Of a stretch of DNA of 64,000 bases, positions 1 through 38,898 are shown in pieces (the stretch's first letter is position 1; the number at the start of each line of letters is the position of its first letter). The DNA comes from an uncultured Frigoriglobus sp. (lineage in GTDB: Bacteria; Planctomycetota; Planctomycetia; Gemmatales; Gemmataceae), in assembly GCA_964495365.1 (NCBI GenBank), contig CAZBXY010000003.1, positions 11,180 through 75,179 on the forward strand, in the 5' to 3' direction. A model generated the notes under the pieces. It was given only the letters and a program-made list of their open reading frames with translations, had not been told where the DNA came from and ran no database searches. The translations under genes and the position numbers were made by a program.

Positions 1-728
1 TCTCCTGGCTCGACAAAGCCCTGAACTCGCCCGAGTTCCTCTCCGTCCGCCGTGACGGCAACCGCCACGGGAATGCCTTCAACCTCGAACACTTCTGCGA
101 CTGCGGTTCGCTCCTCGACATCTACCCTGAGCACCACCCAGTTGGTCAGCTCCTGCTTCACCCGGTCGTCGGGGTACGTCACGGCGTCCATGCGCTTGCA
201 TGGCGGACAGCCAGGCCCGTGGAACGCCAGCAGCAAGGGCTTCCCGGATTGCTTGGCCTTTTGAACTTCCTTCCGCAGGTCTTCGGGCAAGCGGGCCAGC
301 TCCCGACGCACCTTGCCTTCCGTCTTCAGGGCGAAAACAGCGTCCTTGACGACTTGCCCCTTGAATCCTTTCTGGCTCACGGCCTCCAGCATCTGCTCCA
401 GCGTGACCCGCGCCGGGTCGTAGATGATATGGAACTGATCTTTTTTCAGATCGACCTCGATCGATTCAAAGCCGGGAAGCCCTGACAGGGCTTCTTTGAC
501 CCCATTGGGGCAGGACAGTCAGGTGATCCCCTGTACCTTGGTCATGCCCTCGACGTAGAGCGTGACCCGCTGCTTGGCGGGGTTCGACGGTCCGCCCTGG
601 GTGGTCTCGGGCGAGGCCGACGGGTTCTGCGGGGAGTTATCTGCCTGCGGTGGGGTCTTCGTGCTGCACCCGGCCAGTAGCGCCACCAGCACACCGGCAC
701 CCAACACACCCTGAGCTAGTCTGGACAT
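1..728 (-). CDS. Putative selenoprotein: lipoprotein with HMA domain (UxxC) fused to a thioredoxin-like domain (CPPC); 3' end runs off the window
   Basis: ATG at 728 and lipobox LLAGC. The ORF track stops at TGA 521-519, but the same frame continues with no stop to base 3: VTLYVEGMTKVQGIT*LSCPNGVKEALSGLPGFESIEVDL...LLLAFHGPGCPPCKRMD...VEGIPVAV. The TGA falls at the first Cys position of the HMA CxxC. Confidence 0.75.
476..494 (-). promoter_or_regulatory. Candidate bacterial SECIS hairpin
   Basis: mRNA GAAGCCCU-GUC-AGGGCUUC forms an 8-bp stem. Its apical loop starts with GU, 32 nt after the UGA. Confidence 0.55.
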
Positions 729-973
729 GCGGTTTGTTTCTCCTTAGTTTCGTTGACTGGAGGCTTGCACCGGGCGGAAGTCCGCCGTCGGAACCACCAC
801 CATCCGGCCGCCAGAAGCAAGAAGCCGCCGGCCGCGATCAACGGCCAGCCGTGATCGGTCGCGAGGCCGGCCAAGACACCGAGGCCGCCGGATAACAGCA
901 GCAGTTTCACGCCGCAACACAGGGTGAGGGCGAGGCCGAACGTAGCAAGTCGATGACCCTTGTCTCGTGCCAT
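716..973 (-). CDS. Small MerF/MerT-like membrane protein
   Basis: MARDKG...LALTLCCGVKLLLL has vicinal Cys in the first of two hydrophobic segments. It lies in a mer-like operon and overlaps the next start. Confidence 0.6.
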   Translation of the reverse strand: MARDKGHRLATFGLALTLCCGVKLLLLSGGLGVLAGLATDHGWPLIAAGGFLLLAAGWWWFRRRTSARCKPPVNETKEKQTACPD

Positions 974-1107: not shown

Positions 1108-1392
1108 TCATTTCTTTTCGATCTCGAAGTCCGTCACGATCAGCAGGGGCGGTCCCTTGGTGAAGTTGACCTTCGCCTCGGCGATGCCGTCCACCTTCTC
1201 CAGGGCCTTCTGCACGTGCTTCGCACAGTCCTCGCACGTCATGCCCTGGATGCTCAGGACGTAGCACTTGCCGGCCTTGGAGGGCTCCTGAGCGAAAGAG
1301 TCCGGCGTGGCGAGGATGCAGCAACCGCAGCACCACGCCAAGCCCATTCCCAGAACCACCGTCCCCGTCCGGATCGGCTTCAGCATCTCCAC
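1108..1392 (-). CDS. Exported MerP/HMA-domain protein, C-terminus possibly frameshifted
   Basis: Signal-like N-terminus and IQGMTCEDCAKHVQKAL motif. The domain ends early; an HMA-like tail (VRGAGLTAAVE) lies in another frame. Confidence 0.65.
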   Translation of the reverse strand: MEMLKPIRTGTVVLGMGLAWCCGCCILATPDSFAQEPSKAGKCYVLSIQGMTCEDCAKHVQKALEKVDGIAEAKVNFTKGPPLLIVTDFEIEKK

Positions 1393-1477: not shown

Positions 1478-2962
1478 TTACTTCTTCAGTTCGGCACTGT
1501 AGCCCGCATCCTGGACCGCGCGGAGCAACGCCTCCGGCTGGACGGCGCTTCCGGGCCGAGCCGTCACCACGGCCTCGGCCCTGCGGTAGTTCACTTCCAC
1601 CCGCGCCACGCCGGGCACCTTGCGGAGGGCTTGCTCGACGGTGGCGGCACAGCCCTCGCACGTCATTCCGCCCAGCCCCAGCCGGTAGACGGTCTCGCCC
1701 AGCCCCGTCCCCTCGGCGAACCGGGCCTCGTACCCCGCCTGGCGGACCGCTTCCAGGATGGCGTCCCGCGGCACCTCGCGTCCCGTGGGGACGAGCACAA
1801 CGGCCTGGGACTTCTCGTAACTGACGGTCGCCGCCGAAACCCCCGGCACGCCGCGGAGCGCCTTCTCGATGGTCGCCGCGCACCCTTCGCACGTCATGCC
1901 TTTGAGTTCCAGGATCAGCTGTTGGTGGTCGTCCGCGGTGACGGCCGTGGTCGTGTCGCGGTTGCCTCCCCCGAACAGCAGTCCGCTCCACCTGGGGAAC
2001 AGGGCGAACAACAGGATCACGACCGTCGCCACCCACAGCATGACCTGGTTGAACTGCCGCACGGTGAAGCGGCGGCGAACGGGCTGACTGGCGGCGTCCG
2101 GCTCCGGTTCGGTCGCGCAACAGGAATGAGCCGCAGGTGGTGTGGCTTCGGGGGCGCAGCAGGCTTCACCGGCGGACAGCGGAACCGGCTTGCCCCGCAG
2201 ACGGACCCACGCACTTCGGATGGCAGACCGGTAGGTGAAGTACCAGGCCACACCCAGCAGGGCAAAGGTGGCGGTGAGGAAGTACGGCCGGTAGCTCTCG
2301 AAGAAGCTGCCGACCCCGGCGGCGGAGAACCCGAAGGCGATCAGGAGCAAGGGGAGCCAGCAGCAGGCCGACGCGACGACGGCGGTGAAGGCGGCCCCGG
2401 CGGTCGCCAGGACGCCTCCCTTCTCCTTGCGGGGGCCTCCCCCGGCGGTCGAGGTTGGTACAGTGTCCGGTGTCCCCCGGCCGTTGGAGTGCGGCTGGTC
2501 CACCGCCGCGCCGGACTGCGCCGCGAGCTTGGCTCGAACCTCTTTGACGGCCCTGTTCACGTTGCCGAGGCAGCAGGAGCCCTGCGGGTTCGTCGTCTCG
2601 CACTGGCAGTACCCCTGCTGGACCTTCAGCTTGATGCGGTCGGGAATGGTCGTGGTTCCGGTCAGGCGCAGTTCTCGCTCGATGTCGTCGGTGGTCCAGT
2701 CGAAGCAATAGCAGACCTGGATCGGCAGCTCGGTCTCCTTGATCCCGACCGCGACTTTCAGCTGAGGCTTCGTGAACGTCCGACCGTCCGTGGTGAAGTA
2801 CACCACGTCGCACCCCTTGGCGTCACAGAAATAGTAGTCGGCGTCCTCTGCGATCTGGCCCTGAAACTCGTCACGGACGAGGGCGTGGAGCGTCACCGCC
2901 CCGACCTTCTTGCCCTTGGTCCTGCTGGTCGGGCAGACCGCCGTGCTGGTCGTCGTCGTCAT
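1478..2962 (-). CDS. Fusion: CopZ-N/Csac_0668-type Cys-rich (Zn/2Fe-2S) domain + MerT-like TM domain + two HMA domains
   Basis: YYFCDAKGCDVVYF...VCYCF...CQCETTNPQGSCCLGNV; ASACCWLPLLL...YRPYF (MerT-like); two GMTCEGC motifs. Confidence 0.8.
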   Translation of the reverse strand: MTTTTSTAVCPTSRTKGKKVGAVTLHALVRDEFQGQIAEDADYYFCDAKGCDVVYFTTDGRTFTKPQLKVAVGIKETELPIQVCYCFDWTTDDIERELRLTGTTTIPDRIKLKVQQGYCQCETTNPQGSCCLGNVNRAVKEVRAKLAAQSGAAVDQPHSNGRGTPDTVPTSTAGGGPRKEKGGVLATAGAAFTAVVASACCWLPLLLIAFGFSAAGVGSFFESYRPYFLTATFALLGVAWYFTYRSAIRSAWVRLRGKPVPLSAGEACCAPEATPPAAHSCCATEPEPDAASQPVRRRFTVRQFNQVMLWVATVVILLFALFPRWSGLLFGGGNRDTTTAVTADDHQQLILELKGMTCEGCAATIEKALRGVPGVSAATVSYEKSQAVVLVPTGREVPRDAILEAVRQAGYEARFAEGTGLGETVYRLGLGGMTCEGCAATVEQALRKVPGVARVEVNYRRAEAVVTARPGSAVQPEALLRAVQDAGYSAELKK

Positions 2963-3386
2963 CTACGTTTCTCCTGTCTGCGGTCTTGATCCCGTCGAGA
3001 GCTTCGAGGATCGGACATCGGCTGCTGTCCTCCTGCTTGCCACAGGACGACACCAACCGTCCGAGAACCTGCTTCATGCGGAGGAGCAGGGCGACCTTCT
3101 CCTCGATCTCCGTGATCTTGGCCTCGGCCCGCCACCGCACGTCGTCGCAAGGCTGGTACGAGCAGGACCGCAGCGACAACAAGTCCTTGATCTCGGTGAG
3201 GGTGAACCCGATGTCCTTGGCCCGCTGGATGAACCGGAGGCGGTTTACCGTCTGCTCGTCGTACTCCCGGTAGCCGGACACACGCCGGGACGGTTCTTCG
3301 AGCAGCCCGTTCTTCTCATAGAACCGCACCGTCTCGACACCCACCCCGGCGAGCCGGGCCACTTGTCCCGCCGTCATCGTCTTCAT
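2871..3386 (-). CDS. merR: MerR-family regulator, Hg/divalent type
   Basis: MTAGQVARLAGVGVETVRFYEKNGLL HTH. Three Cys match the C82/C117/C126 pattern (PCDDV; SCGKQEDSSRCPIL). Confidence 0.85.
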   Translation of the reverse strand: MKTMTAGQVARLAGVGVETVRFYEKNGLLEEPSRRVSGYREYDEQTVNRLRFIQRAKDIGFTLTEIKDLLSLRSCSYQPCDDVRWRAEAKITEIEEKVALLLRMKQVLGRLVSSCGKQEDSSRCPILEALDGIKTADRRNVDDDDDQHGGLPDQQDQGQEGRGGDAPRPRP

Positions 3387-3405: not shown

Positions 3406-3437
3406 ATCATAAACCTCGTACTATACTACGAGGTCAA
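3406..3437 (-). promoter_or_regulatory. MerR-type promoter/operator
   Basis: TTGACC-20 nt-TATGAT with dyad ACCTCGTA-N6-TACGAGGT, directly upstream of merR. Confidence 0.85.
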
Positions 3438-6934: not shown

Positions 6935-7228
6935 ATGAAGGAAAGCACAACGACGGTGGGGGTCCGGCTGAAGCCGCCCCTTTTGAAACGCCTCGATGAC
7001 GAGGCGAAGACTCGCAGTGTCACCAGAAGCGAATGCCTCCGGCAGATCACCGAAGAAGGGCTCAACGATGAGAAGGTGCGCCTCCTCCTTCAGGAGGTGC
7101 GCGAACTCAGGCAGCTCGTCCTGCTGCTCGACTGCCGGTGGAAGATCGGGCTGGTCGCCATCCTCGCCGACGCCGGAAAGGCGAGTGTCGAGGACGCGGA
7201 AGCGTTCGTGCGCGACAACCTTTCGTGA
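6935..7228 (+). CDS. Ribbon-helix-helix relaxase accessory protein (CopG/TrwA-like)
   Basis: TTVGVRLKPPLLKRLDDEAKTRSVTRSECLRQI RHH pattern, immediately upstream of the relaxase. Confidence 0.7.
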   Translation: MKESTTTVGVRLKPPLLKRLDDEAKTRSVTRSECLRQITEEGLNDEKVRLLLQEVRELRQLVLLLDCRWKIGLVAILADAGKASVEDAEAFVRDNLS

Positions 7229-7269
7229 TTGTGAAGGACACCGAAAATGTTCCAGACGGAGTTACGACC

Positions 7270-9780
7270 ATGTTATCCATCGCGGCACTTTCCGGGGGTC
7301 AGGGCAACTACTACCTGGCTCTCGCCCGTGACGACTATTACCTGAAAGGCGGTGAGCCTCCGGGGCAGTGGCTCGGCAAGGGGGCCGAGCGTCTCGGGCT
7401 TACCGCTCAGATCGGCGGACCAGAACTCAAGCAGCTTCTTCGCGGGTTCTCTTCAGACGGCACCCAGCCGCTGATTCAGGGAGCCGGCGGTCCCAAACAC
7501 CAACCGGGCTGGGACCTCACGTTCAGTTCACCCAAGTCAGTGTCGGCACTCTGGTCGCAGGCCGATCAGGACGTGCGGCGAGTGATCCAGGAGGCGCAAA
7601 CCGCGGCCGTCCGCGAGGCGCTCGACTACCTTCAGGACGCGGCAGCATTGACCCGGCGCGGCCGGGGCGGCCAGACGAGGGAGCCGACGGAACTGGTCGT
7701 CGCGGCGTTCGACCACGGCACGAGTCGGGCACAAGACCCACAGCTTCATACGCACTGCCTCGTCCTGAACGTCGGCGTGCGTGAGGACGGGACCACCGGG
7801 ACGATTCTCAGTCAGCCGCTCTACGCCCACAAGCTCGCCGCCGGGGCCGTGTACCGCGCCGAGCTCGCGAACCAGCTTGAAAAGCGGTTGGGAGTCGTGC
7901 TCGAACGGCGGCAGAGTTGGTTCGAGGTCCAGGGGATCCCGGCCAAACTGATCGATGACTTCTCGAAACGGCGGGAGCAGGTTGAGAAGGCACTCTCGGA
8001 ATGCGGCGCGACCGGAGCCAAAGCGGCGGCGAAGTTGGCCCTCGCCACACGCCAAGCGAAGGAGCATCTGCCGCGCGCCGAACTCCTTCCCGAGTGGCAG
8101 GAAGTCGGCCGGCGGCACGGTTTCACCTCCGAAAACGTCAACACGCTCATGGGGCGGCAACTACCAAGGCAGGATTTGGCCGCGCGAGTCGGGGCCTGCA
8201 TCTGGGCCGCGGCCGAGCGGATCACGCGGCAAGAGAGCCACTTCCCCGAACGCGAACTCGTGCGGCGCGCGGCCGAGGAAGCCCAGACGATGGGTATTCC
8301 CTCTTCGGCGCTCCGCCACATGATCAAGCAGGAACTCAGCCGGTCGCCGGAGTTTGTCTGTCTCGGCCGGTCGGACGGGGAGATCCGCTACACGACGCGG
8401 GAAATGCTCGCGCTGGAGAAGAAGCTGCTCACCCAGGTGGAGTCGCTCAAAAGTCTCCCCTCGACCCCGCTCGCCGAGATAACCATTCGGGCAGTCGAAG
8501 GACAACTCGCGGACGAGCAGAAGCAGGCCCTTCGGCACCTCACGCAGTCGGGTGGCTCGATCCAACTTGTTTCCGGCCTGGCCGGCACCGGCAAAACCTC
8601 CATGCTCAGCGCGGCGCGGGAATCTTTTGAACGCGAAGGGTTCGAGGTCTACGGGGCCTGCCTTTCCGGGAAAGCCGCTCAGGGGCTGGAAGAGGGGGCC
8701 GGGATCAGGAGCAACACGCTGGCGAAACTCCTCGGGATGCCCGAGGTCGGCTTTCGCGGCGAGTTGGACCGGGGGCCGCTCGACACGCTCAAGCATCACG
8801 CCCGTCAGGTGGGAAGGGCCGCGCTGGGCAAGAGCACTTGGCCGGTCGAGCCGATCCGGCTCTCGCCCAAGGCCGTGCTGGTGGTCGATGAGGCGGGCAT
8901 GGTCGGGACCCGCCAGATGGAACGACTGACCGAGAAGGTTCTCGCGGCGGGGGCTCGCCTCGTACTCGTCGGCGACGAGAAGCAACTCCAGGCGATCGAC
9001 GCGGGCGGGCCGTTTGGTTCACTCGGCAATCGACTCGGGCGGGCGACGCTCACCGAGATCCGGCGTCAGCGGGAGCCGTGGGCGCGGGAAGCGGTCAAAC
9101 AGATTGCCGGGGGCGAGGCGCGGGCGGCACTCCGGGAATACGCGAGTCGCGGCTTGATCACCGTGACGGAAGACCGGCACGAGGCGATGCGGGCGCTGGT
9201 CAACAGGTGGAAGCAGGATGGCGCGGTCAACCCGCGTGACCATCTGATCCTCGCGTCCAGCAACGCCGAAGCCTCTCGTCTCAACCGGATGGCGCAGACG
9301 CAGCGGGTGCTGGCCGGCGGGCTCGGCAAGCAGGCCCTCAGTATTGCAGGATCGGACTTCCACCACGGCGACCGGGTGCTGTTCACCCGCAACTCGAAGC
9401 GGTACGGGGTCCAGAACGGCTCGCTCGGCACCGTCACCGAGGTGGACGCGGCGAACGGAATCCTGACCGTCAACCTGGACCGGGGGAAGCTTGTGATGGT
9501 GCCGGTCCGGGACTACGCCCATCTCAAGCTCGGCTACGCCCTGACGACGCACAAAGCCCAGGGCGCGACCACGGAGAACGCCTACGTGCTGCTCGGCGGC
9601 CCGGGCCAGGACCGGGAGTTGTCCTACGTCCAGGCGTCTCGGGCGCGGGGAACCACCCGGTTCTTCCTCGACAAGGTGGAGGCGGGAGACGACCTGCGAG
9701 ACCTCTGCAAACAACTGGAGCACAGCCGGCAGAAGAATCTTTCCCACGACCTCCTGGAGCGACAGGGAAAGGAAAGATGA
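7270..9780 (+). CDS. MOBF relaxase-helicase (TrwC/TraI family)
   Basis: NYY...DDYY catalytic Tyr pairs, WDLTFSSPKSVS, H..SRAQDPQLHTHC (HUH); helicase motifs GLAGTGKT, VVDEAGM, GYALTTHKAQGAT. Confidence 0.95.
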   Translation: MLSIAALSGGQGNYYLALARDDYYLKGGEPPGQWLGKGAERLGLTAQIGGPELKQLLRGFSSDGTQPLIQGAGGPKHQPGWDLTFSSPKSVSALWSQADQDVRRVIQEAQTAAVREALDYLQDAAALTRRGRGGQTREPTELVVAAFDHGTSRAQDPQLHTHCLVLNVGVREDGTTGTILSQPLYAHKLAAGAVYRAELANQLEKRLGVVLERRQSWFEVQGIPAKLIDDFSKRREQVEKALSECGATGAKAAAKLALATRQAKEHLPRAELLPEWQEVGRRHGFTSENVNTLMGRQLPRQDLAARVGACIWAAAERITRQESHFPERELVRRAAEEAQTMGIPSSALRHMIKQELSRSPEFVCLGRSDGEIRYTTREMLALEKKLLTQVESLKSLPSTPLAEITIRAVEGQLADEQKQALRHLTQSGGSIQLVSGLAGTGKTSMLSAARESFEREGFEVYGACLSGKAAQGLEEGAGIRSNTLAKLLGMPEVGFRGELDRGPLDTLKHHARQVGRAALGKSTWPVEPIRLSPKAVLVVDEAGMVGTRQMERLTEKVLAAGARLVLVGDEKQLQAIDAGGPFGSLGNRLGRATLTEIRRQREPWAREAVKQIAGGEARAALREYASRGLITVTEDRHEAMRALVNRWKQDGAVNPRDHLILASSNAEASRLNRMAQTQRVLAGGLGKQALSIAGSDFHHGDRVLFTRNSKRYGVQNGSLGTVTEVDAANGILTVNLDRGKLVMVPVRDYAHLKLGYALTTHKAQGATTENAYVLLGGPGQDRELSYVQASRARGTTRFFLDKVEAGDDLRDLCKQLEHSRQKNLSHDLLERQGKER

Positions 9781-20303: not shown

Positions 20304-21125
<822 letters not shown>

Positions 21126-21282
21126 GCGAGACTCCTGAACGGGTTTTGTGCCGTCTTCGTCGGGGGCGACCCAACTACTCGCGTTATACCATCGGACTGT
21201 GAAGAAACTGAGAAGGCAGTGTGAAGTCCCGGAGCGACTTCGGTCGCCGGTCCGGAGGCCCGTTGGACCCGGGCCAGGTCGT

Positions 21283-23193
21283 TCACCCGGCGAATGCGAC
21301 CTTCTTCCCCGAGAGCAGGCGGACCCCGAAGTTCAGCAGGGTCACCACGATCAGCAGGACCAGCGCGGCCGCCCACGCCTGCCGGTGCCAGTCCGGGTAA
21401 GGGCTGATCGCGTAGTTGAAGATGTACACCGGCAGTGACGGCGTGAAGTCGTTCGGCGAGGTCGCCCAGAACTGGTTGCTCGATGCCGTCAGCAGGAGCG
21501 GTGCCGTCTCCCCGGCGATCCGGGCGATCGACAGGAACACGGCGGTAATGACGGCCGGCAGCGCGGCCGGAAGGACGAGGTGGATGATCGTCTGCCACTG
21601 ATTCGCGCCCAGGGCGTAGCTCCCCTCCCGGAGCGACTGGGGGACGAGGCGGAGTGCCTCCTCCGAGGCCCGCATCACGACCGGGAGCATCATCACCCCA
21701 AGGGCGAATGCGCCGGCCCACCCGGAGAAGTGGCCCATCGACCGGACTACGGCAGTGTACGCGAAGATGCCGATCACGATGGACGGCACCCCGGCCAGGA
21801 GTTCGCCCACGAACCGGGCAGTCGGGGCGAGCCGGCGGCTCTTGTACTCGGCCAAGTAGACGGCGGCCAAGACGCCGAGCGGCACAGCGAACAGGGCGGC
21901 CAGGCCGACCAGCATGAAGCTGCCGAAGATGGCGTTCGCCATCCCCCCGCCGGGCCGGCCGACCGGGGCCGGCGAGTTTACAAAGAACGCCCAGTTGAGC
22001 GCCCCGGCCCCTCGCCAGACAACGTACCCGAGAATCATCAGCAAGAATCCGGCTGTAACCGCCAGGCACAGGCTGAGAACCCACGTCATCACCCGATCCA
22101 CGCGCCGGGCGGCACGGTGCCCGGTGGACGGGAGGGCCGCCCGGCGCGGCGGGGTCGGCTCCTCCTCGTCGTCCGCAGGGCCCGTCGCCAGGGCCGCCTG
22201 CGCGGTGCCCCGGCACAGCCGCCGGAAGCGGGTGAGCAACCCCGCCGAGGGCTGTGCCCGGCCGATGCGGGCCACCATCATGCGGGCGATGGAGTTGACG
22301 ACGACGCTCACGAGCAGGAGGACCAGGCCCAGTTCAACCAGCGCCGACAGGTACAGGTCGTAGGTCGCCTCGGTGAACTCGTTGGCGATCACGCTGGCGA
22401 TCGAGTTCCCGGTCCCCAGCGGGTTGAGGCTGATGTTGGTCCGGTTCCCGATTAACATGGTCACTGCCATCGTCTCCCCGAGCGCCCGCCCCAGTGCCAG
22501 GAAGCACCCGGCCACGACGCCCGGCCGGGCGAAGGGCAGGACGTTGTGCCAGATCACCTGCCACCGGGTCGCGCCGAGCGCGTAGGCTCCCTCGCGCTGG
22601 TGCCGGGGGACGGCCCGGCACGAGTCGAACGAGACGGCGGTGACGTAGGGGACGATCATCACCGCCAGGATCAGCCCGGCGGGGAGAATCCCCAGGCCGC
22701 CGGTGTTCGGGCCGCTCAGCGCGGTGATGACGGACTGGATGGCCGGGGCCATGACGAACAGCCCCCAGAACCCGTACACCACGCTCGGTATGGCCGCGAG
22801 CATCTCGACCAGGAACCCGCCGACCCGCCGCACCCGTGGGCCGGCGATCTCGGACAGGTAGGCGGCCGTTCCGACGCCCAGGGGGACGGCGATGAGCATG
22901 GCGATGGCCGAGGTCGCGACCGTGCCCCAGATGAACGCGAGTGCCCCGAACTTCCGGTGGCTCGGCTCCGGGTCCCAGGTGGCGGTGGTCAGGAACCGCC
23001 CGCCGACCGTGGTGACCGCCAGCCACGACTCCCACGCCAGGACGGCGACCAGGGCGACGAACAGTAGGACGACCGCGACGGTGGCCGCCCTGCACAGGGC
23101 CTTGAAGAGGCGGTCGCCCAACTGAGCGACGGCTGCGGGGCGTGGTCCGCCCGGCGGGGGAACGGGCAGGTGTGCTTGGGCTGATGTCGGCAT
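21283..23193 (-). CDS. pstCA: Fused phosphate permease PstC-PstA
   Basis: One 636-aa ORF holds PstC ([24 protein letters not shown]) and PstA ([25 protein letters not shown]) halves. Confidence 0.9.
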
Positions 23194-23217
23194 GACGGCA
23201 TCCTCCGTGTTCGGGGT

Positions 23218-24249
23218 TCACTCGGACGTGCGGATCAGGTTGAGCTTTCCTTCCGCCCGTTTGACGAGACCCTCCGGCAGCCGGGCGTAGTCCATCTCCT
23301 CGCAGAACGGCTGGCCGTCGTGGATCACCCACCACAGGAAGTCGCGAATCTGCCGCCCCTTCGCCGGCGGCAGGTTGACGTACACCACCGCCCAGACGGT
23401 GCCACTGATCGGGTAGGAGTCCTTGCCGGGCGCATCGGTGATCGAGTACCGGAGGTCGTCGGGGATGTTCGTGAGAGCGGCGTCGGCGGCCGCCGTCACA
23501 GATCCCAGGCTGGCCCTCACGAATACCCCCTCCTTGTTTCGCACCAATCCGAACGGGATGTCGTTGTGCAGGGCGTAGGTCAGTTCGATGTAGCCGAGGC
23601 TCCCGGGCGACCGGCGGACCTGGCCGGCCACGCCCTCACCACCCTTCTGCCCGATACCGACCGGCCAGTTGACCGACGTGCCGACGCCCACCTTTTGCTT
23701 CCATTCCGGGCTGACCTTCGCGAGGTAGTCCACCCAGACGTAGGTGGTCCCGCTGCCGTCGGACCGGCGGACGACGATGATCTCCTGCTCCGGCAGGTTG
23801 GCACCGGGATTGAGGTCGCGGAGGGCCGGGTCGTTCCACTTGGTGATCTTGCCGAGGTAGATGTCGGCCAGGACCGGGCCGGTGAACTGGAGCGGCTCGC
23901 TGACGCCGGGCAGGTTGTAGGCCGGGACGACCGCGCCCATGCAGAGCGGGACGTGGATCACGTCGCCGTTGACCGAGTGGGCCTTCTTCAGGTTCTCCGC
24001 GTTCATCGGCCCGTCGGTGCAGCCGAAGTCGAACGTCCGCGCGGTCATCTGCCGGATGCCGCCCCCGGACCCGATCGACTGGTAGTTCACCTGGATTGTG
24101 GTGGCCTTCTCGTACTCGAAGGTCCACAGGCTCATCATCGGGTACACGAATGTGGACCCACCGGCGTTGAGCCGCCGCCCCTCGTGGCTGGTACACCCCG
24201 CGCCGAGCAGGGCGGCACAGGCCAGGACGGTCGACGCGACGCGGTACAT
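23218..24249 (-). CDS. pstS: Phosphate-binding lipoprotein
   Basis: Lipobox LGAGC, AGGSTFVYP, NYQSIGSGGGI, RRSDGSGTT. Confidence 0.95.
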   Translation of the reverse strand: MYRVASTVLACAALLGAGCTSHEGRRLNAGGSTFVYPMMSLWTFEYEKATTIQVNYQSIGSGGGIRQMTARTFDFGCTDGPMNAENLKKAHSVNGDVIHVPLCMGAVVPAYNLPGVSEPLQFTGPVLADIYLGKITKWNDPALRDLNPGANLPEQEIIVVRRSDGSGTTYVWVDYLAKVSPEWKQKVGVGTSVNWPVGIGQKGGEGVAGQVRRSPGSLGYIELTYALHNDIPFGLVRNKEGVFVRASLGSVTAAADAALTNIPDDLRYSITDAPGKDSYPISGTVWAVVYVNLPPAKGRQIRDFLWWVIHDGQPFCEEMDYARLPEGLVKRAEGKLNLIRTSE

Positions 24250-24282
24250 GAAAGCCCTCCGTTGTGAACCCGGTCCCATCGC

Positions 24283-26046
24283 TCAGTTCGCCTCGAACAG
24301 ATCGGCCGGCAGCGGCGCATCCGCGTCGGCCGGCGGCCCAATCCCGGCGGCGCGGGCGAAGATCGCGGCCACGGACGCCGGCGACACCATCTCCTTCCTC
24401 ACGCCCGGCCGGACGCCGGGGCCGTAGACCATGAGCGGGACGTGGGTGTCGTAGGAATGCGGGGAACCGTGCGTGGTGCCGGTCGCGAACTCGGAGCCGG
24501 GCAGGTAGTACGGCTTGGTGACCACGGCCACGTCCCCGCAACGGTCGGGGTAGAACGAGCGCAGCACCCGCTGACCGATGACATCGTCCTTCGGCAGGCC
24601 CGCGACCAAGCGGCTGCAGGGGTAGGTCGTGAGGATGCCCGGCTGCGTCTTGAGCCAATCGGCCAGGGCCTGCTCCACTTTCGCCGGCTCCAGGCTCCGA
24701 TCGCGCAGCAGCTTCTGGTTCAGGAACACCCACCCGTTGGACACAACATCGACCCACCGACGCTTCGTCCCGCTGCCGTCGCCGAACGTCTTCTCCAGGA
24801 ACGCCTCGGTGTCCCGGCCGAGCAGCGTCGGCGGGATGCGCCCCGCGTCCTTGCCCTGGGCGCGGGCCACCTCCGGCAGCGGGCAGACGCCGTGGTCCGC
24901 CGTCAGAGCGAGCAGGTAGCGGTCCTTGCCGACCGTCACGTCCAGGTGGTCGAGCAGGCCCTTCAAGGTGAGGTCGCTCCGCAGGGTGGTGTCGAGTACC
25001 TCCTGCGAGTCCGGCCCCCAGACGTGGCCGACCGGGTCGTTGCTGGTGAAACTCACGCAGAGGAGGTCGGTCGCCTCGCCCCGGCCCAACCCTTCGGCGT
25101 CAATGGCCTCCTTCGCCAGGTCGAGGAGCAGTTCGTTCCCGAACGGCGAGGTGTAGAGCGCCTGGTAGTACGCGGCCCCCGGTGCCTTCAGGCCGCCGTC
25201 CATCGGGTGCGGGAACGTCCGCCCCTGCTTGACCCCGGTCCCCTCGCCCGCGACATCATCCCGGCCGCTCAACTTTTCGTAGTCCAGGTCGCTGCGGAGC
25301 CGGGTCCAGTCCTTGCCGAACCAGCGGTCGGCCGGCCGCCGGCGGTTGAACGCCTCGACCCACGGGTGGGGCGACTCGCGGTAGTAGGTGGAGGTGATGA
25401 ACTCGCCAGTGTCGGTGTCGAGCCAGTAGCAGGCGTCCGGCTTCCGGCCGCCCGGCAGGATGGCGGAGCGGTCCTTGAAGGACAGGGCCACGACCCGCGC
25501 CTTGCCGCCCGTGGCGTCTTTGAGGGCATCCGCGAACGGCTGGGCCTTCAGCGTGTCGGGCGAGACCCGGCTGACTGCCAGTTTCTTCTCCTTGTCCTTG
25601 CCCTCGTAGGGCGGGGCCGGGGGCACCCGCGTGTGGCGAGGGGAGGCGACGCAATAGACCGGGCCGCCGGCAGCCCGGTCGTACCAGTCGTTCCCGACGA
25701 TCCCGTGCTTGTCCGGCGAACAGCCGGTCAGGACCGCGGCGTGCCCGGCCGCCGTCAGGGTGCCGGCGAACGGGTAGTGGCACTCGGTGTACCACGCCCC
25801 CTCGTTCTGGAGGCGGCGGAACCCGCCCTCTCCGAACTCGTTCTGCCACCGGGCCGGGTAGTCGCCCCGCAACTGGTCGAAGACGACGAGGACGAGCAGG
25901 CGGGGGCGGCCGTCGGTGGCGGGCGGCGGGTTCCCGCCTTTGGGCGTAGAGAACCAGCCGAGGGCGAATGCCACTACCAAGCCTAGGGCAGTGACCGCCA
26001 CGAGGCCCAGCCCAATCCGGGTGAATCTTCGTCGCGAGTCCGACAT
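24283..26046 (-). CDS. Alkaline phosphatase family protein (PafA-like)
   Basis: VVFDQLRGDY, TLTAAGHA, SFKDRSAILPGG, D.VGH.WGPDS, LTADHG, GTTHGSPHSYDTHVP. Confidence 0.9.
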   Translation of the reverse strand: MSDSRRRFTRIGLGLVAVTALGLVVAFALGWFSTPKGGNPPPATDGRPRLLVLVVFDQLRGDYPARWQNEFGEGGFRRLQNEGAWYTECHYPFAGTLTAAGHAAVLTGCSPDKHGIVGNDWYDRAAGGPVYCVASPRHTRVPPAPPYEGKDKEKKLAVSRVSPDTLKAQPFADALKDATGGKARVVALSFKDRSAILPGGRKPDACYWLDTDTGEFITSTYYRESPHPWVEAFNRRRPADRWFGKDWTRLRSDLDYEKLSGRDDVAGEGTGVKQGRTFPHPMDGGLKAPGAAYYQALYTSPFGNELLLDLAKEAIDAEGLGRGEATDLLCVSFTSNDPVGHVWGPDSQEVLDTTLRSDLTLKGLLDHLDVTVGKDRYLLALTADHGVCPLPEVARAQGKDAGRIPPTLLGRDTEAFLEKTFGDGSGTKRRWVDVVSNGWVFLNQKLLRDRSLEPAKVEQALADWLKTQPGILTTYPCSRLVAGLPKDDVIGQRVLRSFYPDRCGDVAVVTKPYYLPGSEFATGTTHGSPHSYDTHVPLMVYGPGVRPGVRKEMVSPASVAAIFARAAGIGPPADADAPLPADLFEAN

Positions 26047-26096
26047 TGCGGGACCTCTGGTTGTGGTTGCGGTTCAGAACGATCGAAGCGGACGGC

Positions 26097-26366
26097 TCAT
26101 GTGCTGTCGGGGTCACCGGGAGGCTTGTGACCGGCGGTCCCGACCATGTCCGCCGCCCGCCGCCCCTTGAACACGAGGCGGCTGACCAGGGTGCAGACCC
26201 CGGCGACCGCACAGACGGCCAGGGTCTGTTCGCTCACCCCGGTCGTGATGAGCAGGTACAGGCCCGCCACCGCACCGATCATCTGGGCCTGCCCGAGAAC
26301 GAGTTGGAGGATCGCCCATCGGATTTGCTTCCGCCTCACGTCAGGTGGTACGGGCGCGTCTGCCAT
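26097..26366 (-). CDS. Small membrane protein
   Basis: Two hydrophobic segments, GGAG RBS, in line with the operon. Confidence 0.5.
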   Translation of the reverse strand: MADAPVPPDVRRKQIRWAILQLVLGQAQMIGAVAGLYLLITTGVSEQTLAVCAVAGVCTLVSRLVFKGRRAADMVGTAGHKPPGDPDST

Positions 26367-26413
26367 CACGTTACTCCGGCTCCATGCCACTCAAAGGCAA
26401 TGCTCGGCTACGC

Positions 26414-26839
26414 TCACACCGGATTGTCACTCCCGTCCAGCGACGCCAGAAGCGCCTTTACTTTTTCTTCAATCAGATCCCGGACGCGGCGGAACTCGTC
26501 GTCGGGAAGTTCCTTCGGATCGGGAATCTGCCACTCCTCCCGACGTACGGCCCTCACCAGGGGGCAGGCGTCGCCGCAGCCCATCGTGACGGCCACGTCG
26601 ATTTCCCGGCCGTTGAACTCGCCAAGCGACTTCGAGGCGTGAGTCGAGAGGTCGTAGCCCTTCTCCCTCATGAACTGAACCGCCCGCGGGTTCACCCGCC
26701 CCGACGGGCTGCTTCCCGCCGACGCGGCCTCGACCCGGTCGCCCCCTTGCATCCGGGCGAAGGCTTCCGCCATCTGGCTCCGGTTGCTGTTCTCGACGCA
26801 CACAAAAAGAACACGCTTCTTGGCAACTTCGCCGCTCAT
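26414..26839 (-). CDS. arsC: Arsenate reductase, LMW-PTP type
   Basis: VLFVCVENSNRSQMAEAF, TMGCGDACP, W.IPDP. Confidence 0.88.
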   Translation of the reverse strand: MSGEVAKKRVLFVCVENSNRSQMAEAFARMQGGDRVEAASAGSSPSGRVNPRAVQFMREKGYDLSTHASKSLGEFNGREIDVAVTMGCGDACPLVRAVRREEWQIPDPKELPDDEFRRVRDLIEEKVKALLASLDGSDNPV

Positions 26840-27513
26840 GACACCTTCTCCGTGTTGACGCTGCTTGCTTCAGGCTCCCGAACCACGTGGGCGATGAGGA
26901 CAGCCACGAGAGCCCCGACGGTCGGGGCTACGAGGTAGGCCCAGAGGTGTTCCATTCTCCCGCTCACGACCGCAGGTGCGAGCGACCGGGCCGGGTTCAT
27001 CGAGGCCCCGCACACGGGGCCAGCGAACATGGCTTCGAGGCCGATCACCGCCCCGACCGCGATCCCCGCGGTGATGCCCTTCTCCTTCGCACCGGTGGAG
27101 ACGCGGAGGATGACGAACATCAGGATGAGCGTGAGGAACAGCTCGAACGTGAACGACTGCCAGACGCCGCCAGCGGGGAGTGTGGCCCCGAGCGTCGGGT
27201 GAGACGGAAAGAGCGCCCGGAGGAGAGCGCTCGCCGAGAAGGCGCCGACCAGTTGGCTCCCGAGGTACGGACCGACGGCCCGGGCGGGAAAGCGGCCCGC
27301 GGCGGCAAACGCGACGGTGACGGCGGGGTTCAGATGAGCCCCCGAGACATCACCTACCGCGTAGACCATCGCGAGCACGACGAGCCCGAAGGTGGCGGCG
27401 ATTCCGACGTGCGTGACGGCCCCGCCGTGAACATCGTTCACGACGATGGCTCCGGTCCCTGCAAACACGAGGGCAAAGGTCCCGAAGAACTCTGCTACCA
27501 TCTTTCGGACCAT
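26836..27513 (-). CDS. MIP family aquaporin (AqpS-like arsenite channel)
   Basis: AEFFGTF, SGAHLNPAVT and ASMNPARS NPA motifs; sits between two arsC genes. Confidence 0.9.
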   Translation of the reverse strand: MVRKMVAEFFGTFALVFAGTGAIVVNDVHGGAVTHVGIAATFGLVVLAMVYAVGDVSGAHLNPAVTVAFAAAGRFPARAVGPYLGSQLVGAFSASALLRALFPSHPTLGATLPAGGVWQSFTFELFLTLILMFVILRVSTGAKEKGITAGIAVGAVIGLEAMFAGPVCGASMNPARSLAPAVVSGRMEHLWAYLVAPTVGALVAVLIAHVVREPEASSVNTEKVS

Positions 27514-27953
27514 CACCCCTCCCGGTCCTTGTTGAGTTGCTCGACCCAGGCCGTCACCCGCGCCTCGATCTGGCCCCGGACTTCCCGAAACCGGGCGAGC
27601 CGTTCTTCGTCCGCGCCGTCCGGGGACGCCGGGTCCGGAAACGGCCAGGAGAGTTGGGCGAGCGCGAACGGCCACAGTTTCGGGCAGGACGCCTCGGCCG
27701 CCTGACACACGATGACCACGAATCGGGGCGATTCCTTCCCGAGGTACTCCTTCAGCCCGTGCGGCTCGCGGCCTGCGAGGTCAATGCCGACCTCCCGCAT
27801 CACCCGCACCGTCAGCGGGTGGATTGGCTTCGCCTCAAGCCCCGCACTCATCACCTCGAACCAGTCGCCGGCCGCGCGCCGGAAAAAGGCTTCGGCCATC
27901 ACGCTCCGCGCTGAGTTCGCCGTACACAGGAACAAGACCCCCGGCTTCCTCAT
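27513..27953 (-). CDS. arsC: Arsenate reductase, thioredoxin-dependent type
   Basis: VLFLCTANSARS.MAEAF, IVC..AEASCP, WPFPDPA. Confidence 0.88.
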   Translation of the reverse strand: MRKPGVLFLCTANSARSVMAEAFFRRAAGDWFEVMSAGLEAKPIHPLTVRVMREVGIDLAGREPHGLKEYLGKESPRFVVIVCQAAEASCPKLWPFALAQLSWPFPDPASPDGADEERLARFREVRGQIEARVTAWVEQLNKDREG

Positions 27954-27960
27954 AACCCTC

Positions 27961-28824
27961 CTACGGTTTCACCGCGTACACCTGGACGCTTGCCGCGAAC
28001 TCGTTCATGTCGTACCTCCGGAGCAACTCCACGAGCCCGCCGTGGACCGCGCTCGTCGCGGGCGAGCAACACCCTCCGGCATCAATGACGTCAAGACCTG
28101 ACGCCGGCGGAGAGCAGCAGCCTGCTTGCCCCTCGACCTTCGAGTAGGCGTTCAGATCCTTCTTCGTGTCCACGACCTCGACCGCGTTGAAGCCGGCCGC
28201 TTTCAGGGTCGCGACGTACTCGGCGATCAGGATGGCACCGGCGATGCAGCCGACGTGGGCCATGAGGTCGTTCCCGACTTCAGGAGGAAGCTCTTTCTTG
28301 AGGGCGATGTCGGAGACCGCGACCCGGCCGCCGGGCTTCAGCACCCGGAAGACCTCCCGAAGCACGGCCGCCTTGTCGGGGGCAAGGTTGATGACGCAGT
28401 TCGAGATGACGCAATCGACGGACGAGTTGGGGAGGGGCAGCCGGTCGATGGTGGAGAGGTGGAACTGGACATTGCCGAGGCCCTGCTTCGTCGCGTTTGA
28501 CCGCGCCCGCTCCACCATCTCGGGGGTCATGTCGATGCCGATGGCCTTCCCGGTCGAGCCGACCTTCCTCGCGGCTAGGAACACGTCGAGGCCACCACCC
28601 GAGCCGAGGTCCACCACCACCTCGCCCGGGCGGAGGTGCGCGGTCGCTGTCGGATTCCCGCACGAAAGGCCCATGTTCGCCCCGGCCGGGATGCTCGAAA
28701 GCTCCTCGGCCGAGTAGCCGAACGCCTCAGCCACGGCCTTCACCCCCGCGTTCTCGGTCGAGAGATCGCTTAGGGCGACCGCCGCGTATTTCTCACGGAC
28801 CACTTCTTCGATCGACTTACTCAT
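27961..28824 (-). CDS. arsM: Arsenite methyltransferase
   Basis: [45 protein letters not shown]. Confidence 0.92.
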
Positions 28825-28836
28825 CTCGTCCTCCGG

Positions 28837-29232
28837 TCAGTCGCATTTTGTGCCCTCGTTCTCCATGAGGCAGAGGGCCAGGTCGAGGAGCGGCGCGACG
28901 CACCCGTTGACGACCTGGTAGTACACGTTGTTCCCGTCGCGCCGGGAAGCGAGCATCCCGGTGTCCGAAAGCCGCACCAGTTGGTTCGACACCGCCTGCG
29001 GCTTCATGCCGAGCGTCTTCGCCATGTCCGTGACGGTCGCCTCACCGCTCCGCACCAAGTGATGCAGGAGCCGGATGCGGGTGTCGTTGGCGAGGATCTT
29101 GAACAGGGCCATCACCTTGACCGCCTGGACGAACGACAAGAGCGGTCGGTCCTTCAGAGCGAGCCGGTCTAAACAGCGCTCGGTGGCCGGCTCGCGGCGG
29201 CCCTTGACCGCAGTCGCGGGTTGTTTCGCCAT
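28837..29232 (-). CDS. ArsR/SmtB family repressor
   Basis: FKILANDTRIRLL, PQAVSNQLVRL, SRRDGNNVYY; GAGGGAGG RBS; first gene of the ars operon. Confidence 0.85.
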   Translation of the reverse strand: MAKQPATAVKGRREPATERCLDRLALKDRPLLSFVQAVKVMALFKILANDTRIRLLHHLVRSGEATVTDMAKTLGMKPQAVSNQLVRLSDTGMLASRRDGNNVYYQVVNGCVAPLLDLALCLMENEGTKCD

Positions 29233-29251
29233 GATCGGGTACCCTCCCTCA

Positions 29252-29288
29252 GAATCCAGTATTACACGAAATCGTGGATTCGTGTCAA
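29252..29288 (-). promoter_or_regulatory. ars promoter with dyad operator
   Basis: Perfect -35 TTGACA (29288-29283), a TAATAC/AATACT-like -10, and inverted repeat GAATCCA...TGGATTC overlapping it. Confidence 0.6.
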
Positions 29289-29559
29289 GTAGGTCTTTCG
29301 CTGCCCGTCCCGACGGAGGAGCCACTAGCCCCTCGACCTCTCCGAGGTCCGGGCACACCAGGACGGCGTGTGGTGGTCGATCGTTGTACATCTTGTTTCG
29401 TCGGCCGCCATCGTCCCAGCGGCACGGGTCCGCATCCTGTCGCTTCCATCGATCGGCCACGACCATGCGGATCACGCCATCCGCCGAATCCCGGTCGAGG
29501 TGCCCGCCGTGTGTCTACTGCGTTCCGAAGATGTCTTCTGGTCATTCTCCGGACTGGAC

Positions 29560-34039: not shown

Positions 34040-34530
34040 GATGCCTCCATCGGCGTTGAGAATCGTTTAGTCCACCGAGCGGCGATCCAGAAAGCTGCGG
34101 GCACGAGTAGCGTAAGTTGCAAGAAGGGCCACAACCCTACGACGAGCACCGGAACGACGGGCATCGACTCGGTGTACGACCAGCGCCCGAAGGCGAGTGC
34201 CCGCCATTCGATGGCCGTTGCGGATGCTCCGCCCAAGAGCGCGGCAGTCGCATAGACGTTCCACCCGCCCCCGATTCCCCACCGGAGTCGTCTCGCTGCC
34301 AGGGCACCCATGGCGTAGATCCCGAGGGTGATGACCGCGTCGCCCGCAGTCGCAACCGTGCAGCCCAACACGGTCTCGCGCCACGGCCGCCCGGCCATCT
34401 CGGCATAGGCCGGCCTCTGCGCCATCTCCCACACCCAGTTGAGACCGAAGGCGGCGAGGATGACCCTCGCTACAAACGGCCAGAGTGACCGGGTGCGGTC
34501 GGCAATCGGCCGCAGCACCCCTCCGGTCAT
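34036..34530 (-). CDS. Membrane hypothetical protein
   Basis: Several TM segments (LNWVWEMAQ.P.Y; GLWPFLQL), coupled on both sides. Confidence 0.7.
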   Translation of the reverse strand: MTGGVLRPIADRTRSLWPFVARVILAAFGLNWVWEMAQRPAYAEMAGRPWRETVLGCTVATAGDAVITLGIYAMGALAARRLRWGIGGGWNVYATAALLGGASATAIEWRALAFGRWSYTESMPVVPVLVVGLWPFLQLTLLVPAAFWIAARWTKRFSTPMEAS

Positions 34531-34784
34531 GACGCGTCCCCAGTCGTCGAACTCCGGACCTTGGTCTGGTAACCGGCCTTACCGATGCGCTGCGCGATTG
34601 CGTCGGGGTCAAGCACTGCCGAGTCAAACAGCACCTCGATCGTCTGAGCGGGGGCTTTTGCGCGGACCTGCCGCACGCCCGGCAGAGTCTTCAACAGTCG
34701 CTCGACGCGCTGCTCGCAGCCCGCACAGGCCAGCCGCTGGTCGCCGGTGATTTCAAGAGTGATTGACTTGACCATACATGACAT
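34527..34784 (-). CDS. HMA-domain metallochaperone (CopZ-like)
   Basis: LACAGCEQRVERLL...PGV..V...KAGY; AAGGAG RBS. Confidence 0.85.
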   Translation of the reverse strand: MSCMVKSITLEITGDQRLACAGCEQRVERLLKTLPGVRQVRAKAPAQTIEVLFDSAVLDPDAIAQRIGKAGYQTKVRSSTTGDAS

Positions 34785-34790
34785 CTCCTT

Positions 34791-37244: not shown

Positions 37245-37299
37245 ATTTCCATCCTTTGCAGTTCTTCTTTTCGGGCACTTTGTCTCCGGAGATTGCAGA

Positions 37300-38322
37300 T
37301 CACATGAACCCCAACTCCTCGACCCGTTGACGCAAGCCGCCCTCGGTCGCCATCAGCGGGTTGTAGAACACACGCACCCGCTTCCGTTTCACGTCGGTCA
37401 GTACCTTGTGGACCGCCTGGAGCGCGAGGAGAGAGCGGCTGAGAGTCTCGGCGCACCCCTCGCAGACCATTCCGGGTGTGCTGATCTCCGCCTCGACCAG
37501 GGCAGCGGCTTCGTCCTTTGGACCACCGGCTTCGCCGCCAACTCCTCGGGCCCTGAGGGCGATTACGACCAACCAGACGACAACGGACAGCACGGTGATA
37601 CCTGTCGCGACCGCGGCGGCGACGGCCCCGAACCGTTGAGCCACGAAGGCGACCCCGAGTACGATCAAAAGCAGACCGGACGCCTTCTCCAGCCGCGGCT
37701 GCCAACGGGCGACGGCCTTGAAGTCCTTGAGCAGCCCCGTGAAAGTTCCGGCCAGGATGAGCGGCAAGCCCCGGACCAAGGCGAAGACGAAGAGGAGGAG
37801 CGCCCCGTACCACGCACTGCCCGTGACCCCGGCGTAGAGGAGCATCGTGAGAACCACCGGGATGGAGCACGGGCAGGCCGACCCCACTAGCCCGAACGGA
37901 AGCCCTAGAAGGAAGGCCCCGCCGAGACTCTCGACCCGCCGCTCGGGCGCGGTGACGGACGGGACTCGGAACCGAAACGCCCCGAGCATTGCGAGCCCGA
38001 GGAGGACCATGATGACGCCGGCGATGAGGTAGCCGTTCGCCCCGAAGAAGGCGGCGAACTTCGAACCGGCCCACCCGAAGACGAGCCCGTAGGCCCCAAA
38101 GGTCGTGGCCGTCCCGACCACGAACGCGAGGCTCCTGGTGAAGGCCTTCCACCGCCTGAGCCCCGGCTCGCCGGCCACGTACCCCATGACTACCGGCACC
38201 GTCGCGAGGACCGTGGGCGTCAGGGCCAGGAGCAGCCCGGCCGCGGCGGCCAGGAGCAAGGCCCAGGGCGACGCCGTTTGCAGGCCCACCAGAGTTTCTT
38301 CGATCGTCTCCAGGTTCAGCAC
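37300..38322 (-). CDS. CcdA/DsbD-beta-like membrane protein fused to C-terminal HMA domain
   Basis: LTPTVL..VPVVMGYV, AFLLG.PFGLVGSACPCSIPV, LEKASG; HMA GMVCEGC. Confidence 0.8.
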   Translation of the reverse strand: MLNLETIEETLVGLQTASPWALLLAAAAGLLLALTPTVLATVPVVMGYVAGEPGLRRWKAFTRSLAFVVGTATTFGAYGLVFGWAGSKFAAFFGANGYLIAGVIMVLLGLAMLGAFRFRVPSVTAPERRVESLGGAFLLGLPFGLVGSACPCSIPVVLTMLLYAGVTGSAWYGALLLFVFALVRGLPLILAGTFTGLLKDFKAVARWQPRLEKASGLLLIVLGVAFVAQRFGAVAAAVATGITVLSVVVWLVVIALRARGVGGEAGGPKDEAAALVEAEISTPGMVCEGCAETLSRSLLALQAVHKVLTDVKRKRVRVFYNPLMATEGGLRQRVEELGFM

Positions 38323-38334
38323 GACGCACCCCCT

Positions 38335-38805
38335 TTACTTCTTCTCGGCGGGGGTTGGGTCCTTCTTCTCGGCCGGGTTGAAGTCGATCTTCTCGGCCTC
38401 AAGCCAGATCCTCCCGCCCTTCTTCACCACCTTGCCCGTGACCTTGGCCCGCTGCCCAACCCGCTGCTCGGTCAGTATGAGTTTGCCGGGTGCCAGATCG
38501 ACCATAACCTCCCCGCCGTCGTCCTTCAGACGCAGCCAGCACCCGCTGGCCGGACACTGCTGGGACACCCCGGCTTCGACCGCGACTCTCTGCCCGAGCC
38601 GTTCCTCGGTCACGCAGCCGGTACACACCGTGGGAACCTTCTCCGTGTCCGGTTCGGCCGGAGCCGCCCGGCCGGTTGCGGCTGTCGCCGGTGATTCGGC
38701 CGTGGTCTTCGCGGGGTCGCACCCCGTGACGGCCAGGGCCGCGGTGACGAGAAGGCCCGCGGCGACGGCGCTCAGGGCAACTGTTCTCGCGTGTCGTGTC
38801 CTCAT
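38335..38805 (-). CDS. Lipoprotein with Cys motifs, OB-fold-like (DUF4920-like)
   Basis: Lipobox AVTGC, VCTGC, V.QQCPASGCWLRL, KVTGKV; AAGGAG RBS. Confidence 0.65.
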   Translation of the reverse strand: MRTRHARTVALSAVAAGLLVTAALAVTGCDPAKTTAESPATAATGRAAPAEPDTEKVPTVCTGCVTEERLGQRVAVEAGVSQQCPASGCWLRLKDDGGEVMVDLAPGKLILTEQRVGQRAKVTGKVVKKGGRIWLEAEKIDFNPAEKKDPTPAEKK

Positions 38806-38866
38806 ATGGTCTTTCTCCTTGCGGGTCCGGTGGGTCGGCTTGGACCTTCCATGCCAGTCTGACGCC

Positions 38867-38898
38867 ATTCTAAGCTCCGTACCGCGGTACGGAGTCAA
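38867..38898 (-). promoter_or_regulatory. MerR-type promoter/operator
   Basis: TTGACT-20 nt-TAGAAT with perfect palindrome CTCCGTACCGCGGTACGGAG. Confidence 0.9.

Follow-up and report, generated by a model that had tools for sequence, protein, structure and literature searches.

The question raised by this locus is whether a reading frame of 69 codons that ends in TGA is a stub, or the front part of a longer gene in which TGA is read as selenocysteine (Sec), and, if the latter, what such a protein does in a mer-like operon. The window (the whole stretch of DNA analysed, 64,000 nucleotides from an uncultured Frigoriglobus sp.; host genome G000, 8.66 Mb, 85.6% complete) has on its minus strand an ATG at position 728 that opens the frame and a single in-frame TGA at 519-521, directly after GIT, which truncates the annotated ORF (519..728) to 69 codons; LSC are the next residues in the same frame. 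The original prediction held that this TGA stands where the first Cys of an HMA CxxC motif belongs, and that the frame runs on for more than 170 codons through the rest of the HMA fold and a CPPC thioredoxin domain. Both statements hold: alignments that include solved HMA domains place the TGA column at the first Cys (U70-x-x-C73), and 172 open codons follow within the window, the frame closing with a TAG that lies 46 nt past window base 1, at G000:C3:11134. The whole gene (1..728, minus strand, its last 46 nt lying beyond the window; G000:C3:11134-11907) has 257 codons, and the read-through product, taken from the G000 contig, has 257 residues with one TGA-encoded position.

A Shine-Dalgarno-like AAGGAG (740..745, minus strand, as are all features of the operon) lies 11 nt ahead of the ATG. 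The segment 666..728 has the sequence pattern of a signal peptide with a terminal lipobox (LAG-C21), making the product a predicted lipoprotein, in line with the export proposed earlier; a loose lipobox pattern matches in 38 of 49 family rows. The HMA domain of MerP/CopZ fold (348..569; Pfam PF00403 at residues 64-123, 48.4 bits against a cut-off of 24.8) has an extended metal loop and contains the predicted Sec70 (TGA, 519..521) and Cys73 (TGC, 510..512). It is followed by a DsbD-gamma-like domain (1..281; Pfam Thioredoxin_7 at residues 150-225, 47.5 bits against 27) with C174-P-P-C177 at 198-209, which has the fold and the helix-starting CxxC of thioredoxin-fold oxidoreductases and a predicted role as a disulfide reductase. 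The AlphaFold2 model, built from 20 rows (pLDDT 77, pTM 0.58), consists of a floppy N-terminus, the HMA domain and the thioredoxin domain; the metal loop, residues 65-71, has pLDDT <50, and the packing of the domains is uncertain at this pTM. DsbD-gamma (0.69-0.74) and MerP (PDB 1osd and 1afi; TM(target) 0.82-0.89) took the top Foldseek ranks. A repeat had been pointed out in the metal loop, VEGMT-K-VQGIT, and it is present (11 of 18 bases alike). However, a recent duplication was rejected as unproven, since an insertion of 6-7 residues of variable sequence occurs at this place family-wide (GFVESAGIT, GMMKSKSGAT and GMQRGEGGKT in relatives).

Judging from the host genome, the relatives and a downstream hairpin, the in-frame TGA very probably encodes Sec. 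The host carries the full Sec route: selA (557 bits), selB (332 bits, 378 with its neighbour) and selD (386 bits), all above cut-off, and selC, a 95-nt tRNA-Sec with anticodon UCA (72 bits). TGA occurs at the redox motif in three of 29 host AhpC-like matches, namely a TxxU peroxiredoxin, a UxxC protein and a third protein that is presumably deiodinase-like; the SelD and Fdh-like genes of the host encode Cys forms. A second TGA-flagged HMA match (G000:C3:48470-48664) was examined and is an ordinary stop. The genome also has a 72-nt tRNA with anticodon CUA at G000:C8:42692-42763 (ARAGORN: Pyl), a possible amber suppressor. A DUF1559 gene makes Planctomycetota, with which this family is associated, the probable phylum. 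Sequencing runs, which might have shown TGC or TGT, were examined over the TGA site in four of the 20 listed cases: contigs of X1, X3 and X8, from three studies (X1 or X3 being possibly the origin of this DNA), have no other letter there, and X16 yielded one short contig of a relative, in which the TGA is kept and the second motif position is a Cys codon.

When 401 genomes of the phylum were searched with a profile, 39 matched; without G000 and four thioredoxin-only genomes, this leaves 36 loci in 34 genomes, or 34 of 400 sampled (about 8%). A metagenome scan added 17 loci of the Sec-HMA/thioredoxin family (L060-L076) out of 79, the other 62, all thioredoxin-only, being set aside. These whole-genome searches were needed: a single-protein GTDB scan gave only seven distant thioredoxin or spurious matches, and 60 near relatives only ordinary HMA matches plus one different TGA-bearing HMA lipoprotein. 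The column that the original prediction had singled out for comparison is TGA in all 48 relatives covering the HMA motif with upstream context. TGA stands at the codon equivalent to Cys73 in 47 of these (UxxU), and L178 alone is UxxC, like the window copy. Of 53 relatives, 34 carry TGA in place of the first thioredoxin Cys, and 19 have a Cys codon there. Each match at the 36 genome loci holds 2-4 TGA, and the family ranges from two to five TGA codons. A full-length Cys form (CxxC) is also present, P0164, whose thioredoxin CxxC is missing; it came from a 50%-representative search in which multi-HMA ATPases were dominant and 12 of 150 matches were inspected. Carriers have selA in 32 of 34 genomes and selB in the other two, against selA in 290 of 401 for the whole sample, the carriers being kin and not independent.

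A 51-row tree, which omits nine loci lacking a matched motif and is midpoint-rooted for display only, places the gene in a 100/100 clade of 12. The DNA-read members of this clade all have UxxU/UxxC, and the enclosing 96/95 group of 32 has TGA in the thioredoxin motif of every other DNA-read row. On the simplest reading, the ancestor had three Sec (UxxU, UxxC) and the window copy is a one-Sec descendant in which two Sec became Cys. That three Sec would be the norm of the family, two of them changed to Cys here, goes beyond the original prediction.

Other TGA-bearing genes were met in the same searches. A different HMA lipoprotein, with U-P-V-G-U and neither loop insertion nor thioredoxin domain, lies at L047 1390-1737 (G034). 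Many thioredoxin-like genes (L077-L138) share MD(A/T)VTYP and a stop at the first Cys, some continuing into TPR-like repeats; TGA was confirmed in seven that were checked, and two that were tested reached no NCBIfam cut-off. A PDZ/thioredoxin-like protein with two adjacent TGA codons (SGAET-U-U-P) stands beside or is fused to the family in L065, L066, L067, L070, L071, L075, L170-L172, L187, L200 and L203, giving five TGA in one frame in L066, L070 and L071; the L075 protein matched no NCBIfam family at E <1e-15, and a motif search of the host genome found none of this type.

A GU-loop hairpin had been noted 32 nt downstream of the TGA, and a SECIS-like hairpin is indeed intact at 476..494 (GAAGCCCU-GUC-AGGGCUUC), its loop G 32 nt 3' of the TGA. 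The bSECIS rule, as worded in the accessible part of PMC13188914, asks for a loop of 3-9 nt, a stem of 4-16 bp, G in the first two loop positions, a distance of 16-37 nt from the UGA and an MFE of at most -7.5. By our own script, not bSECISearch, this hairpin passes (8 bp, loop GUC, 32 nt, -11.6 kcal/mol), as do 39 of 48 relatives and also 387 of 3000 random TGA sites of G000 (13%). A hairpin alone is therefore a weak sign, and this one carries weight because it is conserved across relatives. The 7-pair stem is paired in 98.9% of cells over 13 aligned rows, with two-sided changes in three of the seven pairs, and shuffles equalled it in 0-1 of 500 cases on four of five measures and in 27 of 500 on "further pair types." The loop start UG is invariant in all 48 relatives (third base of a CTG or GTG codon), and the five inner stem pairs are 91.7% paired across the 48, versus 24-67% when slid. 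In relatives, the single hairpin appears to serve both UxxU codons, from which it lies 32 and 23 nt away. At window 497-512 (minus strand), a small helix in relatives pairs the second UxxU UGA with invariant bases just 3' (UGACC/GGUCA); the window copy, with UGC at that codon, has lost one of these pairs.

The relic of a second SECIS hairpin, which in relatives sits 3' of the thioredoxin TGA, is found at 172..189. Its stem is disrupted by changes at two synonymous positions, both of which are the same in all 17 TGA-bearing metagenome relatives. GAT, GTG, ACG and TAT are invariant at synonymous positions in these 17, which the metagenome scan had selected for peptide and not for second-hairpin bases. 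The window copy alone has GAC and TAC, with which two central pairs are lost and four remain. An in-register stem of 5-6 pairs is present in 23 of 34 TGA relatives versus none of 19 Cys relatives, and under a looser, shift-tolerant rule in 28 of 34 versus two of 19. The second stem is without covariation (every one of 500 shuffles scored as high), and its support comes from the synonymous-site invariance and the absence from Cys forms. Two Sec have thus apparently become Cys, and of the two hairpins only the one still in use has been preserved, the other having decayed. Of the indirect evidence, this speaks most strongly for continued recoding of the remaining TGA.

The mer-like setting proposed at the outset was found as well. 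The order on one strand is a MerR-type operator, merR, a zf_CopZ-MerT-2xHMA gene, a small HMA protein, a small CC membrane protein, the Sec-HMA/thioredoxin gene, a Cys-rich lipoprotein and merA, the last two just outside the window. The promoter/operator at 3406..3437 (TTGACC, dyad ACCTCGTA/TACGAGGT, TATGAT) is taken as MerR-type from its likeness to mer operators; a generic promoter scan of L001 8300-13000, the region outside the merR promoter, found nothing. The regulator (2871..3386; domain scans and alignment) has TIGR02051 as its best match, at 132.1 against a cut-off of 150.85, together with the three-Cys set and the dyad operator. Domain scans identify a zf_CopZ/Fe-S-MerT-2xHMA fusion of 494 aa (1478..2962), and Pfam finds a partial HMA domain (GMTCEDC) in a small exported protein (1108..1392). 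The 85-aa membrane ORF with a CC pair (716..973) has no family match, and we take it to be MerF/MerE-like by resemblance. The merA gene itself (G000:C3:8541-9965) scores 492.8 with TIGR02053, above the cut-off of 454.45. The next gene downstream, the Cys-rich lipoprotein (L001 10142-11086, minus strand), has an HMA-like segment and a wide Cys pair (TCPAVKGIGC); it has no family match and also follows the family gene in L061.

A mobile island, as first suggested, is likely because the contig carries a TrwC-type relaxase (7138..9780, plus strand; domain scan), a coupling protein and an integrase, and the gene is absent from the 28 other genomes of the genus (0 of 28). The contig further holds an AbiE pair and As-type and Cu-type clusters. 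About 4.5 kb beyond merA, in the same island as mer, L001 2134-4013 (G000:C3) encodes an HgcAB-like fusion protein (NF043039, 356 over 285) and a CpaM methyltransferase (NF043040, 263 over 180), with an ArsR regulator ahead. Window 20307-29475 and 34530-44001 form a multi-metal island with a phosphate ABC transporter, arsenate reductase, aquaglyceroporin, arsenite methyltransferase and ArsR, then an HMA protein, a P-type ATPase, an ABC exporter and a second MerR. A CcdA/DsbD-membrane domain fused to HMA (37303-38322, minus strand) adjoins a heavy-metal P-type ATPase and might supply exported thioredoxin domains with electrons.

The frame, its domains, the conserved TGA, the covarying hairpin, the host Sec genes and the gene order are observed, and from them we arrive at a proposal to which we give a probability of roughly 60%: the recoded lipoprotein is a MerP-like Hg(II) receptor that hands the metal to MerT and is kept reduced by its own thioredoxin domain. 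MerR would switch the operon on, SelB would read the 476-494 hairpin and Sec would be placed at codon 70. The 257-residue predicted lipoprotein, presumably lipid-anchored and facing the periplasm, would bind Hg(II) with its Se/S pair U70-x-x-C73, as MerP does with its Cys pair, and pass it to the MerT of the same operon and then to cytoplasmic MerA. The fused thioredoxin domain would re-reduce the U70/C73 pair intramolecularly, possibly drawing electrons from a membrane protein of CcdA/DsbD type, for instance the CcdA-HMA fusion encoded at window 37303-38322. Control by MerR and the choice of Hg as the metal are likewise putative. Several points speak against this proposal. A further receptor is not obviously needed, because three Cys HMA domains are already encoded in the operon; Se might bind Hg too tightly for the metal to be handed over; in the Cys relative P0164, the thioredoxin CxxC is missing; the metal loop of the model has low confidence, and the window MerR lies below the TIGR02051 cut-off.

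The neighbourhoods of relatives bear on the choice of metal. At the 36 genome loci, which span roughly 10 kb apiece or less where cut short (MerR sought with two MerR queries other than that of the window), neighbours are MerR-type in 12, zf_CopZ in eight, MerT in six, MerB in one and MerA in none; the same queries find five MerR-type loci and one MerT-type locus in the whole host genome. A metal or metalloid gene lies in at least 18 of the 36 loci (Pfam on 180 of 242 candidate ORFs, SBF transporters counted as likely Acr3), and the other 18 have no metal gene nearby among the ORFs scanned. The neighbours at the 17 metagenome loci are at least those given here, 106 of 178 listed ORFs having been scanned: L061 has merR-merT-merA ahead of the gene and keeps all three TGA, L070 has a MerR-MerB fusion nearby, and L064, L065 and L075 have merR or merT. 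In L191, the HMA-thioredoxin domain pair is fused directly to zf_CopZ-MerT-HMA. The three-Cys set, which we take to be the Hg-binding set of MerR, is kept in 14 of 16 neighbouring MerR proteins, and one neighbouring MerR without the first Cys adjoins a heavy-metal P-type ATPase. With three candidates scored per genome, merA exceeds its cut-off in none of the 34 carriers and in three of 401 genomes overall. Because merA is rarely next door family-wide, Hg is our best guess for the window copy and no more than a candidate for the whole family.

The scarcity of merA (adjoining in none of the 36 genome loci) counts against the Hg receptor and in favour of its strongest competitor, which we consider distinctly less likely: that the same selenoprotein is a general soft-metal/metalloid or redox-repair lipoprotein for Cu, Ag, Cd or As stress, keeping exported Cys-rich metal proteins reduced and recruited into a mer operon, with Hg incidental. 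Seven loci do have Cu-type (P-type ATPase, CsoR) or As-type neighbours and 18 have none, among the ORFs scanned; the thioredoxin domain is closest to DsbD-gamma, the Cys-rich lipoprotein follows the gene here and in L061, and the PDZ/thioredoxin-like UU protein is a frequent companion. However, the commonest neighbours are three-Cys MerR regulators and MerT, with MerB twice, and the direct MerT fusion in L191 and the presence of both merA-linked copies in the closest clade of the window gene also tell against it.

An improbable reading is that of a terminal trap, in which the Se pair would hold Hg(II) outside the inner membrane with next to no release and protect cells that lack MerA, the step from three Sec to one here reflecting a shift to hand-over after gain of MerA. 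Most carriers indeed have no detectable merA among the three candidates scored per genome, 47 of 48 relatives retain UxxU and the merA-linked window copy has lost two Sec. Yet L061 keeps all three TGA beside an adjoining merA, L178 is UxxC without merA, and the adjoining MerT implies import.

The remaining explanations concern the decoding itself. Recoding of UGA to another residue, either Cys by a SECIS-dependent tRNA-ReC or Trp, is very improbable. In favour of it, genomes bearing UXXU hydrogenases are enriched for tRNA-ReC, according to the accessible part of PMC13582414, and the protein records P0002 and P0004 have W at the three TGA-equivalent sites. However, the sole UCA-anticodon tRNA found in G000 (85.6% complete) is the 95-nt tRNA-Sec, the two next-best host selB matches are EF-Tu-like, and ordinary host genes do terminate in TGA; the W of the two records looks like a code mis-call, because the DNA of close relatives, as opposed to that of the records themselves, has TGA at the same sites. 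A true stop, arising from a nonsense mutation or from misassembly, would leave a 69-aa stub and a thioredoxin piece with a start of its own. Such pieces are what gene callers report, the foreseen splitting being seen in P0003 (145 aa) and in 37 family fragments of 60-77 aa that end in ...FHGPG or start after it, but a true stop is hardly credible given an identical TGA in all 48 relatives, many at <45% identity, the same contig sequence in three studies, and a covarying hairpin that is intact at the kept TGA while the unused one decayed.

The Sec-HMA/thioredoxin protein exhibits similarities to several known families, but it lies below the cut-off of every NCBIfam family, as do its relatives. 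The best NCBIfam match of the window protein, of four full family members and of two PDZ fusions tested is NF041115 (UxxU_metal_bind), with which it shares an HMA fold with Sec in the metal motif, the family itself being UxxU in 47 of 48 relatives. The window protein scores 66.5 bits and its relatives 43-64 against a cut-off of 95; the NF041115 model, a stand-alone HMA selenoprotein of 74 positions, covers only residues 64-128, whereas the window protein adds the lipobox, a 6-residue loop insertion and the thioredoxin domain, and is UxxC rather than UxxU. The accessible family table of PMC13188914 describes NF041115 as a metal-binding (seleno)protein, "putative mercuric reductase," with two Sec. 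MerP (TIGR02052; PDB 1osd, 1afi), a periplasmic Hg(II) scavenging protein according to the accessible text of PMC3466566, shares the HMA fold, predicted export and an operon with merR, merT and merA. However, the window protein reaches 32 bits against 92.55 and differs in having Sec for the first Cys, a predicted lipid anchor and a fused thioredoxin domain. Sec in an Hg-transport-type protein is shared with the MerT/CopZ fusion-like family NF045683 (18.2 bits against 375) and with MerT-family selenoproteins, mentioned in the accessible text of 10.1101/2022.07.06.499078, but the window protein has no MerT membrane domain (no PF02411 match). The thioredoxin fold with CxxC, or UxxC in relatives, recurs in DsbD gamma and the UxxC thiol:disulfide interchange selenoproteins (PF13098), in NF041199 (Trx7/PDZ) and in TsoB (NF045694), all far below cut-off (54/330, 24/300 and 38.8/805); for these types, the accessible table of PMC13188914 names no HMA fusion.

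That 2026 inventory of 119 prokaryotic selenoprotein families lists, in its accessible part, a maximum of 2-3 Sec and includes NF041115, MerT-like and P-type ATPase selenoproteins; an HMA-thioredoxin fusion is not named in the part of its family table that could be consulted. A literature search found no paper on an HMA-thioredoxin selenoprotein fusion, a description in Haft and Tolstoy 2025 or in supplements being possible; the families of Haft and Tolstoy 2025 that the accessible part of PMC13188914 gives as NCBIfam models were scanned, and no cut-off was reached.

Overall, the locus very likely holds a recoded selenoprotein gene encoding a predicted Sec-HMA metal binder with a new domain pairing, with a multi-Sec family behind it that stayed hidden because gene callers cut its frame into pieces of 60-77 aa. 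This would add a multi-Sec family that lies below all tested NCBIfam cut-offs and is not named among the 119 families in the accessible table of PMC13188914. A wider and more doubtful suggestion, which we would put well below even odds, is that about 8% of the sampled genomes of the phylum have an undescribed selenium-based arm of mercury handling, in which a three-Sec lipoprotein acts with MerR, MerT and sometimes MerB, mostly without MerA; if true, this arm would often include the PDZ/thioredoxin-like UU partner, whose fusion to the lipoprotein yields frames with up to five TGA. The window copy also offers a natural SECIS control, one hairpin having been kept with its TGA and the other having decayed after its TGA changed to Cys. 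Because a probable selenoprotein stands inside a merR-merT-merA operon, the use of Sec in bacterial Hg handling may be tested with natural UxxU, UxxC and CxxC variants of a single scaffold.
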